Source: a virus
Lineage: Duplodnaviria; Caudoviricetes
Length of the DNA stretch: 64,000 nucleotides
Direction: 5' to 3' (one strand)
Virus record (IMG/VR): IMGVR_UViG_3300028048_000056
Location: 64,001-128,000 of that record
The position numbers were made by a program, and so were the translations under genes. The notes below the pieces were generated by a model, which saw only the letters and a program-made list of their open reading frames with translations, did no database searches and had not been told where the DNA came from. Shown in pieces: positions 4,229-58,237 of this stretch. Position 1 is the first letter of the stretch; each line of letters begins with the position of its first letter.

Positions 4229-4286
4229 GCTTATATGCACGGTGAGCATATAATACAGTATACACCGTATACCACTGCATTTAAGC
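4229..4286. repeat. 58-bp inverted-repeat element, copy 1
   Basis: GCTTATATGC-N38-GCATTTAAGC. Confidence 0.85.
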
Positions 4287-4316
4287 AAAACCGTACAAGA
4301 AACAGGAGGTTAGTAT

Positions 4317-5519
4317 ATGCTATTCAAGGTCAGTCAGATATCACCAACGGTAGAGTTGGTATTCGCCGATGCTGAGCGATTTATTAACGTCTACCCGAGT
4401 TATCATCAGAATGGAGATTTAATCTACGCTAATGTCAATCCCGCAGCGTGGACTTTAGTAGGAACTGAATACAGATGGGAGACCACTTTCGTAGGTATCA
4501 CGGACATGACAGTACCGGTAATTCAGCTAATATACTCATACAATGCTACTCAAGCACAGAGACAGCAGCAATATGAAGCATTTAAGTCCATAACATCCGT
4601 CGAAACTGTTGAAAACAAGTTGTATCTACGAGCACCGATACGACCAAGCATTCCCTTCCGTATAAGATATCGTCGACTAGATAGGATGGATTTGGCAATA
4701 TCACTAAACCGATATCTAGGTATTGGTTTAGGTGTAGATGCACACCATGACAGTCTTGACGTATCTATGACCGCTATGAATCCGCTAACCGGTCAGTCAT
4801 TACCACTCACTACCACGCTTCAAGAAGCAGGTATAGGGTATGCAGGCGTACTGTCTTCTGATATGTTCGCTCGGATTCTTAAACTCGAGGACACCTACAA
4901 CAAGACGCTAACCCAACCTTATCGAATTGAGGGGTATGCTTCCGCCATTGCTGCTACGCCAGTCACAACCTACTACGCAGACATTGCAGCAGTTCAAGCT
5001 GTTGCCTCCGGTACCTGGTACAAGGAATGCGCACTATACAGCATAACAGATGCTGCTGACTTTGACACTGCGGTACACCTATTTTACCAACAGCAAGCTA
5101 CGTTGCTTGATTTAACACATATTTACACTGGCAACGTAGAATCCTTTAGTTATGCGTTAGCTGCTAACGTGTTGCTACAAGATATCAAAGGACTACAATT
5201 ACTTGATACACATAAAGCTACTGACATCAGCTATATGTTCGCTGATGATTCTGCCCTAGAATCTATCGATTTAGGTGTTTGTGACCTCAGGAACGTTCTG
5301 AATGTTGAAGGACTGTTCAAAGGCTGCACCGGGTTACAATACCTAGACGTTTGCAGTATAGACTTTACTAAGAAAGACGGTCAAGGAACTGCTCTGATTG
5401 AGCAGCCAGATGTGTTCACAGGAGTCCCTAATTCTTGTGAAATTTGGGTAGGCGGTCAAGCGCAACGAGATGCTATAATTGCTGTCTACCCGAATCTAAC
5501 CGGCATCACTTATAATTGA
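4317..5519 (+). CDS. Putative tail fibre/receptor-binding protein with BspA/DUF285-like LRR C-terminus
   Basis: DISYMFADDSALESIDL..NVEGLFKGCTGLQYLDV repeats; AGVLSS motif; N-terminal segment like Bacillota phage fibre domains. Confidence 0.55.
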   Translation: MLFKVSQISPTVELVFADAERFINVYPSYHQNGDLIYANVNPAAWTLVGTEYRWETTFVGITDMTVPVIQLIYSYNATQAQRQQQYEAFKSITSVETVENKLYLRAPIRPSIPFRIRYRRLDRMDLAISLNRYLGIGLGVDAHHDSLDVSMTAMNPLTGQSLPLTTTLQEAGIGYAGVLSSDMFARILKLEDTYNKTLTQPYRIEGYASAIAATPVTTYYADIAAVQAVASGTWYKECALYSITDAADFDTAVHLFYQQQATLLDLTHIYTGNVESFSYALAANVLLQDIKGLQLLDTHKATDISYMFADDSALESIDLGVCDLRNVLNVEGLFKGCTGLQYLDVCSIDFTKKDGQGTALIEQPDVFTGVPNSCEIWVGGQAQRDAIIAVYPNLTGITYN

Positions 5520-5550
5520 TTTATTTTCATATATTAGAATGAATAGTATA

Positions 5551-5582
5551 ACTTCGATGTCCACAGGTAAGTTTGTTATAAT
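5551..5582 (+). promoter_or_regulatory. ACTTCG-N20-TATAAT promoter
   Basis: Member of the 13-copy motif family; upstream of ORF 5615. Confidence 0.75.
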
Positions 5583-5614
5583 AAAGATATAATCAAAAGC
5601 GAGGTGCTAGCATA

Positions 5615-5791
5615 ATGAAAACAGTCGAGCAGCTGATTAAATCTTTTGAAGCAAAAGCCGCCATGGATAACTGCTCAATCGTGTCGCGAGATGACCTGCT
5701 AACAGCGGTTATGTATCTAAAAACTGTCACAGGTGATTCTGAGGTCAAGATTTCCCTCAACGCGGACCGAGTACCTTCTGAGTCTAAGTAA
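5615..5791 (+). CDS. Small hypothetical protein (58 aa, not in ORF track)
   Basis: RBS GAGGTG; MKTVEQLIKSFEAKAAMDNC...PSESK. Confidence 0.65.
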   Translation: MKTVEQLIKSFEAKAAMDNCSIVSRDDLLTAVMYLKTVTGDSEVKISLNADRVPSESK

Positions 5792-5829
5792 TCGATGTGC
5801 TATTCAGATATTTCTGAAAGGAGGATTCC

Positions 5830-55719: not shown

Positions 55720-56595
55720 ATGGCACGCTATACAGCGGAAGAGTCCAAGTCCATGGAGTACCAGGGCGCCGAGACTTTCAGAATTGAAAAGGATGGCGGC
55801 AAAGCTCAGGTCGTATTCCTCTACACAGATGAAAAGAGCGTTGACGGCTGGTCTTGTCACAGACTGCCTGGTGCGAACTATTACACCTACACTGTTGACT
55901 GTCCGAGAGGCCCGAAGGACGAGGTTGATATATGTCCAGCATGCAAGGCTGGTGAGCCTCTGTCTACTCGTGTGTTCGTCCTCATGCTTGATGTCACATC
56001 AGGTAAGGTTATGATTTGGGATAAACCTGCATCATATCGAAAGGAAATCACAAGCCTTATGAGCTACTACAAACCTCTCTATAAGCAGAAGTTTGAAATT
56101 ACTCGTGAGGGTACGGGTCTCAATACCAAGTATCGCACAATGCCTATCGGTGATAGCGGTCTTACAGAAGAGCAGTACAAGGAGTTCCTTGATAAGGCGA
56201 ACGAGGTATGCAACGACTATGTTCGTCCTATCGATAAGTACGATGAAATCAAGGCACGCTCACTGGCAGCTCAAGCAGAGCAGGTTCAGGTTGACGCTCA
56301 GCAGGGACAGCAGCCTCCTCAGCAGAATGCTTGGGGTCAGAATACGCCTCCTCAGGGTCAGGCTGGTTGGGGTGCTCCAGCTCCTCAGCAGCAGTGGGGT
56401 GCTCAGAATCAGGCTCCTCAGCAGTGGAATCAGCCTCCTCAGGGTATGCCACAGAATCAGCCTCCTCAGGGTATGCCGCAGCAGGCAGCTCCTCAGAATC
56501 AGCCAGGTGGCTGGGCTCCTCAGGGTCAGGCTCCCCAGCAGAATGGCTGGAGTTCAACTCCGAACGGTGCTTGGCAGAATAACCCGCAGAACTAA
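55720..56595 (+). CDS. ssb: Single-stranded DNA-binding protein (gp32-like) with Q/P/G/W low-complexity tail
   Basis: H..C...CPAC zinc motif, KVMIWD, KFEITREGTGLNTKY; C-terminal QPPQGMPQ repeats. Confidence 0.7.
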   Translation: MARYTAEESKSMEYQGAETFRIEKDGGKAQVVFLYTDEKSVDGWSCHRLPGANYYTYTVDCPRGPKDEVDICPACKAGEPLSTRVFVLMLDVTSGKVMIWDKPASYRKEITSLMSYYKPLYKQKFEITREGTGLNTKYRTMPIGDSGLTEEQYKEFLDKANEVCNDYVRPIDKYDEIKARSLAAQAEQVQVDAQQGQQPPQQNAWGQNTPPQGQAGWGAPAPQQQWGAQNQAPQQWNQPPQGMPQNQPPQGMPQQAAPQNQPGGWAPQGQAPQQNGWSSTPNGAWQNNPQN

Positions 56596-56615
56596 TCAAT
56601 AAAGGAGTAAGATAG

Positions 56616-57665
56616 ATGATTTGTAAGAAGACTAACCTGGATACAGCTCTCGCAGCTGTATCCGAAGGTTTAACACCTAACTCATACGTTATCCTCGCAC
56701 AGACTGTTACCTTGCACGTTGCAGACGGTAACCTGTATCTTATCACTGAACCTGATGACGGTGAGGTTTGGTACAGTGCGAAGGTGGGTGCAACTACTGA
56801 AGCGTTTCCAACAGTTTCTGTCGACGGTGCAAAGTTCAGCAAGGCAATCTCCTACTGCGGAGAGTCTGTCGAGCTCACCGCTACTGAAGACACACTTATT
56901 ATCAAGAACGAAAAGGGTACTCTGAAGCTCCCAATCCTCGTCGATGATGCAGGTCAGCCGGCAGTTCATGAGTTCTTCACTCACACCGGCAATCAGCTTA
57001 AGGTTGACCACCTCAACCAGATTAAGATGCTCACTGGTACACTTTCTAAGACAATGGACAGCATCGCAGAGCGTTGTATCTATACCGATGCAGACTGTTC
57101 ATTTGCTACAGATGATATCAACATCAGCAAGGGTGACTCACTTATCAACGAGCCGATTCTTCTGTCAGCTCGTATGATTAGCTACTGCACAAAGCACTCT
57201 GATGTTCAGATTTATGATGCTGGTGCAGAGTTCTTCTGGTTCATATCTGAGGAGTCTGGCTCATCTGCAAGATTCTCAAAGGTATTCCAGGATTTCATTC
57301 CTCAGTTCCCTCTTGAGAACCTTAAGCAGGAGTTTGCCAATGAGGTAAAGAATTCAGTAACTGTCGATATGGCATCTTTCCTCAACTCTATGCAGTTCCT
57401 TGCTATCGTGGCGGACTCAGCTAACGATTATAGCGTTACGGTTTGTCAGGAGACTCCTGACGAGCTCATTCTCAAGTGTGCAGACAGCATACAGAAGGTT
57501 CCTTGCAAGTCCATCAAGGGTGAAGGACCTTGGTCTATCGAGGTTGACTGTCTGAGTGCTAATGCACGTTTTGCACCTTATGACGGCATGGTTCAGCTCG
57601 ATGTGTATGAGAGTCAGCTTGCCTGTGTAGGACCTGTGACTACTTCTATCGGTCTTATCTCCTAA
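56616..57665 (+). CDS. Putative DNA sliding clamp (DnaN/beta-like)
   Basis: 349 aa acidic, repeated beta-alpha-beta-beta-beta pattern (VSVDGAKFSKAI; VTVDMASFLNSM; FATDD); adjacent to clamp-loader genes. Confidence 0.6.
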   Translation: MICKKTNLDTALAAVSEGLTPNSYVILAQTVTLHVADGNLYLITEPDDGEVWYSAKVGATTEAFPTVSVDGAKFSKAISYCGESVELTATEDTLIIKNEKGTLKLPILVDDAGQPAVHEFFTHTGNQLKVDHLNQIKMLTGTLSKTMDSIAERCIYTDADCSFATDDINISKGDSLINEPILLSARMISYCTKHSDVQIYDAGAEFFWFISEESGSSARFSKVFQDFIPQFPLENLKQEFANEVKNSVTVDMASFLNSMQFLAIVADSANDYSVTVCQETPDELILKCADSIQKVPCKSIKGEGPWSIEVDCLSANARFAPYDGMVQLDVYESQLACVGPVTTSIGLIS

Positions 57666-58141
57666 TGGCAGATAATCTCGGTAAGGTCTGGGAAGACATC
57701 GTCGAGGAGTGGTTGCTTCAGAACAAAATCTGCTACGACCGCATCCCCGACCAGATGTCGGGTAGAAAAGGTTCTAAGAATGTGTGCGATTATGACGCAT
57801 ACATATACCCGCACATTTATTACATAGAATGTAAAGAGTGTGCTTCCCCTAGATTCAATATGCTCCAGAACATTGATGAATATCAATGGATACACATGCT
57901 GGAGAAGGACTTGATTCCGGGAGTAAGGGCTGGGTATGTAATCTGGATGTCAGGAGAGCAGAGAGCTTTCTGGGTATCACCACTCACATTGGACTTGTAT
58001 TACTCCGCGGGTAAGAAGTCAATCACGGTGGATGATCTGGAAGTAAGCGGTGTGGAACTAAAACTCTACATGAAGCGAACTTGCTGGCATTTAGAAACGT
58101 GCTTAGATGTAGTTGAAGAATATTTGGCACAGGTGAACTGA
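57665..58141 (+). CDS. recU: RecU-like Holliday junction resolvase
   Basis: GKVWE, RIPD, CDYD, YIECKE, IDEYQ. Confidence 0.75.
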   Translation: MADNLGKVWEDIVEEWLLQNKICYDRIPDQMSGRKGSKNVCDYDAYIYPHIYYIECKECASPRFNMLQNIDEYQWIHMLEKDLIPGVRAGYVIWMSGEQRAFWVSPLTLDLYYSAGKKSITVDDLEVSGVELKLYMKRTCWHLETCLDVVEEYLAQVN

Positions 58142-58169
58142 ACACATCGGTTCACCTGTGTTTTATTTT
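58128..58169 (+). terminator. Intrinsic terminator
   Basis: CACAGGTGAAC...GTTCACCTGTG then TTTTATTTT. Confidence 0.8.
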
Positions 58170-58179
58170 CGCCCGCACT

Positions 58180-58237
58180 GCTTAATTGCTACAATCATAA
58201 TACATACAATGGTTATGCGTAATCACTGCATTTAAGC
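58180..58237. repeat. 58-bp inverted-repeat element, copy 5
   Basis: GCTTAATTGC-N38-GCATTTAAGC. Confidence 0.85.

Follow-up and report, generated by a model that had tools for sequence, protein, structure and literature searches.

A ~74-bp palindromic unit recurs between genes of an uncultured phage whose DNA we analysed over a window of 64,000 nucleotides, bases 64001-128000 of the 162,085-bp single phage record IMGVR_UViG_3300028048_000056 (positions are those of the window unless given as genome positions). The unit consists of two inverted 10-nt arms around a spacer that is most often 38 nt long. It is real, is conserved at orthologous gene junctions of related phages, pairs with a bias towards the gene strand and is followed by a U-rich tail at three junctions. 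The explanation we rank first, tentatively and at just short of an even chance, is that the element is a transcribed RNA hairpin that ends or separates transcription units, together with a putative sequence-specific reader of its arms; the termination, barrier or processing activity and the existence of the reader are what we infer.

A conserved element at the gene junctions of a phage clade

The consensus unit, GGTWYT-GCTTAAATGC-N38-GCATTTAAGC-ARWACC, is palindromic, with outer flanks of 6 nt per side that read GGTTTT/AAAACC or GGTACT/AGTACC. An earlier reading of the window, made by a model from the letters alone (hereafter the sequence-only reading), had described a 58-bp element with five intergenic copies, an invariant 38-bp distance between the arms, and a half-site at 12967. 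These five copies are present, with both arms exact at 23223 and 29311 (0 matches over 100 shuffles) and with one left-arm mismatch at 4229 (GCTTATATGC), 49931 (GCTTAGATGC) and 58180 (GCTTAATTGC), each around a 38-nt spacer, and a lone arm is present at the half-site. The unit size was underestimated, as the repeat reaches 6 nt further out on each side. Arm half-sites with at most one mismatch number 16 in the window against 4.1 expected. As had been claimed, all copies are intergenic; more specifically, the eight copies of the whole genome and their orthologues all lie between co-directional genes, usually with the upstream stop codon 11-35 nt away.

A pattern search of the genome, its relatives and potential hosts, as the sequence-only reading had proposed, placed the eight full copies at genome positions 2454, 63366 (39-nt spacer), 68229, 87223, 93311, 113931, 122180 and 148922, and also found one decayed copy (131235) and the lone arm (76967; window 12967). 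A covariance model finds all eight and one weak relative (window 62165-62234). In a scan of IMG/VR the exact pattern was confined to a few contigs of 110-167 kb, whose DNA polymerases are 83-97% identical to that of the window phage, and synteny mapping placed the 7 to 10 strong matches in each of five complete relatives at orthologous gene junctions (junctions are lettered A to K; Table 1). The invariant distance holds for the window copies and not for all others: of 53 distinct copies, 39 have a 38-nt spacer, and the rest have spacers of 37 nt (6 copies), 39 nt (6) or 40 nt (2). Within a junction the spacer shifts by one base among genomes and then reverts, which indicates a constraint on its length that stops short of invariance.

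A scan of 185,579 bacterial and archaeal species, each represented by one genome, yielded only three matches, all unrelated, and the element is thus not a host repetitive extragenic palindrome (REP) or MITE (miniature transposable element with inverted repeats). Rfam gave 0 matches at gathering score in the 64-kb window, a near-identity search of a phage collection gave no match, and a protein search with the SbcC-like gene found distant relatives only. The sequence-only reading had been unable to place the element in a known family, and the Rfam and host-genome results agree with it.

Evidence for a proposed RNA hairpin on the gene strand

Folded as single sequences, the copies reach -27 to -40 kcal/mol, but -13 to -19 kcal/mol at junctions C and G, and the mean energy is better in the sense direction at six of the eight junctions. 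Changes at Watson-Crick pairs among orthologues show the same orientation: read in sense, 288 lead to G.U versus 145 to A.C, and read in antisense 132 versus 247, although these counts come from related sequences rather than independent events and are hence inflated, which is a first point to be set against a hairpin. The excess of G.U over A.C in sense is found at 5/7 junctions, and the base composition of the sense strand in intergenic DNA predicts no such bias (GxT 0.061, AxC 0.059). Consensus folds obtained with RNAalifold are likewise better in sense than in antisense at junctions F (-16.7 vs -14.5 kcal/mol), D (-17.7 vs -13.9 kcal/mol, with a conserved U.G pair) and H (-26.8 vs -24.3 kcal/mol), and each of them contains conserved G.U pairs. 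At junction F, GTATAC/GTATAC in the relatives has become GTGTAC/GTGTAC in the window phage, and the two altered pairs read as G.U in sense and as A.C mismatches in antisense.

Further evidence for an RNA role comes from the ends of the hairpins. The stem is followed by 10 nt with 5.8-6.8 T at junctions A, B and H, a richness that is retained as the tail sequence changes among relatives. The sequence-only reading had stated that the copies lack U-tails, which is correct for those in the window and incorrect for these three junctions outside it. The weakest hairpins are those of C and G, both of which are preceded by canonical terminators; the decay of the hairpin exactly where a separate terminator exists fits a job that the terminator can take over. 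In the most distant relative (G001) junction E is without the element and has an unrelated 10-bp hairpin around the promoter word instead, a substitution that we count in favour of the hairpin and against a site in duplex DNA. Between genomes, the spacer at junction E differs at 2/38 sites, compared with ~7/20 in the neighbouring promoter spacer, which suggests that it is under selection and is also listed in favour. The sequence-only reading had offered, without ranking them, a site for a DNA-wrapping or looping protein, an attC-like recombination site and an RNA processing hairpin; these were partly supported, and the RNA hairpin gains most from the G.U bias, the sense folds and the three U-rich tails.

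We posit that the palindromic unit is specific to this phage clade and marks transcription-unit boundaries. Transcribed together with the gene upstream, it would fold into a stem of at most 16 bp under a partly paired top of 37-40 nt. Copies with a U-rich tail (A, B and H, all outside the window) would most likely terminate or attenuate read-through just before the next promoter, and tailless copies (the window copies D and F, and K of a relative) would most likely act as a 3'-end barrier or processing point in polycistronic RNA. At C and G, behind separate canonical terminators, the hairpin would have been left to decay. A putative reader of sequence, rather than pairing, would hold the 10-nt arm word and the overall size constant; this additional factor is proposed because pairing does not explain the fixed arm word and size.

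Promoters and terminators around the element

Phage promoters of the form ACTTCG-N20-TATAAT lie 9-19 nt after the right arm at junctions B, E, G, H and I. In two relatives (G004 and G005) the promoter at junction E overlaps the element, with AACTTCG inside the spacer and the right arm occupying the gap between AACTTCG and TATAAT. Junction C has a TATAATA 10 nt from the left arm in every genome, and junction A has only a TATAATA word, ~45 nt away. No promoter is evident at junctions D and F, which places these copies inside operons. The sequence-only reading had ACTTCG promoters 9-10 bp from two copies; this is right for the clamp-loader gene (ACTTCG, 10 nt from the arm) and not for the polymerase gene, where the word is TATTCG, 12 nt from the arm. 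Its mention of separate terminators beside some copies is confirmed at C and G. Copies are absent from the 12-62 kb early block of the genome, where most ACTTCG promoters lie.

Constraints beyond base pairing and alternative explanations

The serious rival, which we nevertheless regard as doubtful, is a site in duplex DNA. A phage or host protein would bind two arm-plus-flank half-sites and serve as an operator, insulator or roadblock for adjacent promoters; the centres of the half-sites, each of 16 bp (up to ~23 bp with the inner word), would be separated by 48 bp, with a flexible spacer between them that the phage HU homologue might bend sharply, and the RNA hairpin would be a by-product or second use. 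Reading of the duplex by a protein may also be a second function of the element. Much of what follows weighs against a hairpin as the explanation and would suit such a site.

The arms are almost invariant across paralogous copies and six genomes (524/570 cells at consensus over the ten arm pairs), and a plain terminator needs no fixed arm sequence. They hardly covary: changes cluster at pairs 6 and 7 and are mostly mismatches, which persist across genomes. Apparently compensated C-G pairs at arm pair 7 (L044, L071) were rejected as covariation, being expected from independent half-site variants at the observed frequencies, and the distribution of variants at this position is as though half-sites vary independently. 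Arm pair 3 of copy L070 has a real compensated change, T-A to G-C, which speaks against duplex DNA. Covariation of the flanks (TT/AA vs AC/GT) exceeds shuffles but is weak: counted by independent junction, ~5 are matched and 4 mixed. At C and G the arms and their 38-nt separation outlast the decay of pairing, and the lone right arm and flank of junction J are the same in three genomes (including G002 and G004) whose surroundings differ; in G004 the left arm of this junction is kept at 7/10 positions at N38.

The spacer adds further points of this kind. It is held at 37-40 nt, for which there is no obvious need in a loop, and its self-pairing exceeds dinucleotide shuffles at E, F and H and not at A, B, C, D and G. 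The internal complementarity that the sequence-only reading had seen in every spacer thus holds at 29311 and 49931 (z -2.2 and -3.1 against dinucleotide shuffles) and fails at 4229, 23223 and 58180 (z -0.4 to -0.6). The U-tail is absent at 7/10 junctions. In 39 non-redundant spacers GA/TC makes up 4.2% (genome 13.8%, intergenic DNA 11.1%; binomial p ~1e-21) and AG/CT 6.8% versus 13.7%, while alternating purine-pyrimidine steps reach 72% versus 50% and the flexible CA/TG and TA steps are abundant. This composition matches phage promoters, unlike that of canonical terminators (10.5% GA/TC); scans for terminators gave no enrichment over shuffles, and the comparison set was therefore limited to the five clearest ones. 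Duplex DNA would also account for the arms that bracket TATAATA at a fixed 10-nt offset at C in all genomes and, in G004 and G005, for a right arm placed between AACTTCG and the polymerase promoter's -10. The phage encodes an HU-family protein, as the sequence-only reading had said; its gene adjoins the 23223 copy, and nothing ties HU to the element. At five junctions most copies have an ACGGT-like word beside the 5' arm, and at one junction it is beside the 3' arm, a polarity that is suggestive and not significant.

Neither the gene-strand G.U excess nor the U-rich tails of junctions A, B and H would be predicted by a site in duplex DNA alone. Arm and promoter word are separated by anything from overlap to 19 nt, with no fixed helical phase, copies D and F have no evident promoter to regulate, and no candidate binding protein has been identified. 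The GA/TC shortage could instead reflect avoidance of Shine-Dalgarno-like and anti-Shine-Dalgarno words just 5' of ribosome sites. An elaboration that we consider unlikely is a fixed-geometry nucleoprotein site, in which a phage protein would clamp two half-sites over a 38-bp alternating spacer, perhaps bent by HU; the GA/TC-poor spacer would be a patch of unmodified guanine that insulates or times transcription units, and the site would double as an RNA hairpin.

More unlikely still is an endoribonuclease processing site, a narrower version of the RNA reading, in which host RNase III or a phage-directed nuclease would cut polycistronic RNA and leave a protective 3' hairpin, in the manner of intergenic sites in T7 and in the Bacillus phage SP82. 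Stem and inner pairs together reach 22-28 bp at E, F and H, enough for RNase III, which needs ~20 bp or more of double-stranded RNA; the copies lie between cistrons, and a conserved arm sequence and size would suit an enzyme with sequence determinants. Intergenic sites of phage SP82 are targets of Bacillus subtilis RNase III, according to the passage of PMC4838370 that cites Panganiban and Whiteley 1983. At A, B, C, D and G, about half of the junctions, however, the hairpin top shows no pairing in excess of shuffles, a gene for RNase III was not found in the phage genome, and C and G sit between terminator and promoter, where little RNA is expected to pass through.

We judge it very improbable that the element is a recombination or mobility module, whether by cassette shuffling of the promoter-early stem-loop (PeSL) kind, as a landing pad or target of homing endonucleases, as a MITE or as an attC-like folded site. 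GIY-YIG genes do abut copies B and E, the gene at E varies in presence by genome with its junction 11 nt from the element, copy K is present in G005 only and copy E is missing in G001. Against this stand the same orthologous junctions and conserved synteny over six genomes, the absence of the element from the host species genomes, a genome without tyrosine recombinase and without Y1 transposase, and an endonuclease insertion at E that does not have an element on each side. The two flanks of the element complement each other and do not form direct repeats, which leaves no target-site duplication, and a MITE or Correia-type element was rejected on this ground and on its orthologous positions. 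The attC-like site of the sequence-only reading did not hold up: the arms GCTTAAATGC/GCATTTAAGC have no integron core words (RYYYAAC / GTTRRRY), and each of the dispersed copies stands singly at its own fixed orthologous junction, not in a cassette array.

Several narrower candidates were also set aside. The arm holds TGCTTAA, like the MotA box TGCTT(T/C)A that stands 12 +/- 1 bp from the -10 in T4 middle promoters, but -10-like hexamers follow at 0 to 16 nt with no fixed distance and a conserved TATAATA (10 nt) occurs only at C; a search of the phage for the MotA activator, which had no positive control, gave no match. Convergent or divergent promoters in the two arms do not fit the gene layout, and the likeness of the spacer centre to an early-promoter core (TGTGT..ATATAG..GTAC) is best explained by shared composition, its -10 positions being poor. 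A DNA cruciform is unlikely as a general mechanism, with extrusion of a 38-bp centre expected to be unfavourable and half of the spacers without inner palindromes.

Neighbouring genes and other sequence features

The positions of the copies and of the features next to them are given in Table 1. The orthologues of copy G in G002, G003 and G004 retain the arms and N38.

Table 1. Junctions of the element and associated features; coordinates are window positions
Feature	Position	Strand	Description
Junction A	outside window		before endolysin gene
Junction B	outside window		after dUTPase gene
Canonical intrinsic terminator directly 5' of copy C	4189..4215	+	GTCGGTTCAGCTGAACCGAC then T-rich tail; terminator-plus-element layout also in relatives
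Junction C copy (4229)	4221..4294	+	before gene for 400-aa protein, family not recognised; arms 4229-4238 (one mismatch) and 4277-4286; 38-nt spacer; weak hairpin; covariance model 58 bits
Junction C promoter-like TATAATA	4249-4255	+	10 nt from left arm; layout kept in four relatives
Junction J lone right arm (12967)	12967..12976	+	before portal gene; with flank, CACT-GCATTTAAGC-AGTACC; left arm lost into end of upstream gene
Canonical terminator after lone arm J	12985-13023	+	follows the arm
Junction D copy (23223)	23215..23288	+	between HU and tail tube genes; exact arms, 38-nt spacer, no U-tail, no evident promoter; within operon
Junction D neighbours	22879-23208; 23317-23865	+	HU-family gene; tail tube gene (gene assignments)
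Junction E copy (29311)	29303..29376	-	between SbcC-like or homing endonuclease gene and DNA polymerase gene; exact arms; strong hairpin, -35 kcal/mol sense vs -28 kcal/mol antisense
Junction E neighbours	29380-30021; 26927-29236	-	GIY-YIG homing endonuclease gene; DNA polymerase gene (gene assignments)
DNA polymerase promoter just 3' of copy E	29269..29301	-	TATTCG word 29293-29301; TGTATAAT 29269-29276
Junction F copy (49931)	49923..49996	-	between 173-aa and 122-aa genes, gaps 13 and 7 nt; one arm mismatch; strong hairpin
Canonical intrinsic terminator directly 5' of copy G	58126..58170	+	16-bp stem then TTATTTT
Junction G copy (58180)	58172..58245	+	between Holliday-junction resolvase and clamp-loader genes; arm T.T mismatch, unpaired flanks, weak hairpin (-13.6 kcal/mol)
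Clamp-loader promoter 10 nt 3' of copy G	58248..58280	+	ACTTCG 58248-58253; TGTATAAT 58273-58280
Weak relative of element	62165..62234	+	outer flank words only (GGTTTTGCTAC...GTAGCAGAACC) around -10-like TGTTATAAT; covariance model 22 bits, E 0.003
Junction H	outside window		between GTP cyclohydrolase and phosphoribosyltransferase genes
Junction I	outside window		site whose copy is decayed in the genome of the window phage
Junction K	outside window		copy in G005 only

The GIY-YIG homing endonuclease genes that abut copies E and B lie at window 29380-30021 (-) and L029:3454-3966; the one at E is missing in several relatives, and its insertion falls exactly between the stop codon of the SbcC-like gene and the element. 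The 400-aa protein that follows copy C (window 4317-5519, +) is preceded by a strong ribosome site and, behind the terminator, by a promoter-like TATAATA of its own, and gave no match in PHROGs, Pfam (sub-threshold DUF285 only) or solved structures.

Two sigma-factor-like proteins (Sigma70_r2; PHROG 351, E 2e-32 and 5e-17) are encoded at L077:1477-2073 (genome 18432-19028) and L078:1360-1995 (genome 136174-136809), which suggests a sigma cascade with promoter classes of its own in this phage. A second promoter-like class without ACTTCG, YTGAYA-N8-TATAATA(G), is found at window 14804-14832 and at genome 2538, 63964 and 153054, 5' of the endolysin, head polyprotein and other genes in the structural-gene region, and is possibly a late promoter class. 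Many of the ACTTCG promoters (L086:1240-1500; early promoters, genome 12-62 kb) have their own short hairpin of variable sequence that encloses ACTTCG in a PeSL-like layout, with examples at genome 49712, 60470 and 119522 and in G001 5' of the polymerase gene.

Words related to the element, or like it in composition, also occur apart from it. The flank word AGCARWACC (complement GGTWYTGCT) is strongly intergenic even away from the elements, for example at window 62167-62175 and 62224-62232 and at genome 43404-43423; 12/20 of its occurrences fall in ~8% of the genome, and AGCAGAACCTTAGCAAAACC stands in tandem at two places. Another intergenic word, GCGTTAGC(A/G)TGCGTG, recurs at genome 12190, 45480, 107250 and 142920, in several islands that lack GA/TC. 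Long GA/TC-free stretches outside the elements lie at L028:5403-5526 (genome 45403-45526) and genome 32676-32782; one of them is a very stable hairpin (-63 kcal/mol) inside an open reading frame of a simple gene call that may be spurious, and this hairpin may be a structured RNA gene.

Meaning and comparison with known systems

To our knowledge, gene control in large virulent phages of anaerobic gut and rumen bacteria is almost unstudied, and the element provides a concrete landmark for transcription-unit boundaries in one such clade. It joins two constraints that rarely coincide: pairing of bases on the gene strand, and a fixed word and size beyond pairing. Should a protein read patches of unmodified DNA in a modified-guanine genome, the element would show how such phages keep their control sites legible; should an RNA-binding factor or a nuclease read it instead, the element would be a new signal for RNA processing in phages. 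In both cases the arm-word reader would be a defined target. The element is real and conserved, and other known systems that we compared (REP/BIME units, the T7 and SP82 sites and uptake-sequence pairs) each share some of its traits.

The nearest described system is that of the PeSL cassettes of the T4-type phages RB49 and phi1, in which a stem-loop lies 5' of, between or over the promoter boxes and is a strong terminator in a reporter; PeSL stems are short, variable and based on G/C runs, and the cassettes cluster in hyperplastic early regions by orphan genes and recombine into mini-circles (PMC2839356). Common to both is a repeated intergenic unit of stem-loop and promoter in a large virulent phage, with the hairpin of the element 9-19 nt 5' of ACTTCG-type promoters and enclosing the promoter word in two relatives. 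An ACTTCG-type promoter lies within 19 nt or overlaps at B, E, G, H and I; A has only a TATAATA word ~45 nt away, C has one in the spacer, and none is evident at D and F. Unlike PeSLs, the element has a fixed arm word of 10-16 nt, a top of 37-40 nt and only 7-10 copies, which stand at conserved core-gene junctions (polymerase, clamp loader, tail tube, endolysin) of six syntenic genomes with no sign of cassette excision, rather than in a hyperplastic region of orphan genes and recombination.

REPs and bacterial interspersed mosaic elements (BIMEs) are palindromes found at gene 3' ends in enterobacteria, to which stabilisation of upstream mRNA or attenuation of transcription, and also protein binding at the DNA level, are ascribed; in BIME-1, or RIP (repetitive IHF-binding palindrome), an IHF site lies between two inverted REPs. 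The element resembles them as a palindrome of conserved sequence with two inverted arms around a linker of set length. It differs in that REPs are host-chromosomal, G+C-rich, present in hundreds of copies and spread by RAYT (REP-associated tyrosine) transposases, while the element is confined to a phage clade with A+T-rich arms, no Y1 transposase and no IHF-type word seen. Membership of the REP/BIME family was rejected on the near-absence from host genomes and the missing transposase (for background on REPs and MITEs see PMC3184786).

Canonical intrinsic terminators resemble the element in their position just after stop codons and, for junctions A, B and H, in the U-rich tail behind the stem. 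They differ in their short loop (3-8 nt, against 37-40 nt here) and immediate U-tract, which here is a U-rich tail at 3/10 junctions only. The stem core of the element is A+T-rich, its GA/TC content is 4% compared with 10.5% in the canonical terminators of the same phage, and two copies lie beside a separate terminator; a canonical intrinsic terminator was thus rejected as the identity of the element. Like the element, the intergenic RNase III sites of phage T7 and Bacillus phage SP82 are ~5-10 dispersed and similarly sized hairpins with shared sequence that separate the cistrons of virulent phages. Their cleavage has been demonstrated, while that of the element would be putative; in half of its copies the upper stem is not significantly paired, and some copies have a terminator on one side and a promoter on the other.

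The DNA uptake sequences of Neisseria and Haemophilus run to thousands, have a known reader, and form inverted pairs with short loops that double as terminators. The element has ~16-20 arms per genome, a fixed 38-nt gap and a reader that is only putative. In both, a short fixed word occurs as inverted intergenic pairs that also form an RNA hairpin, and uptake sequences thus provide a model for how sequence and pairing may be constrained together.

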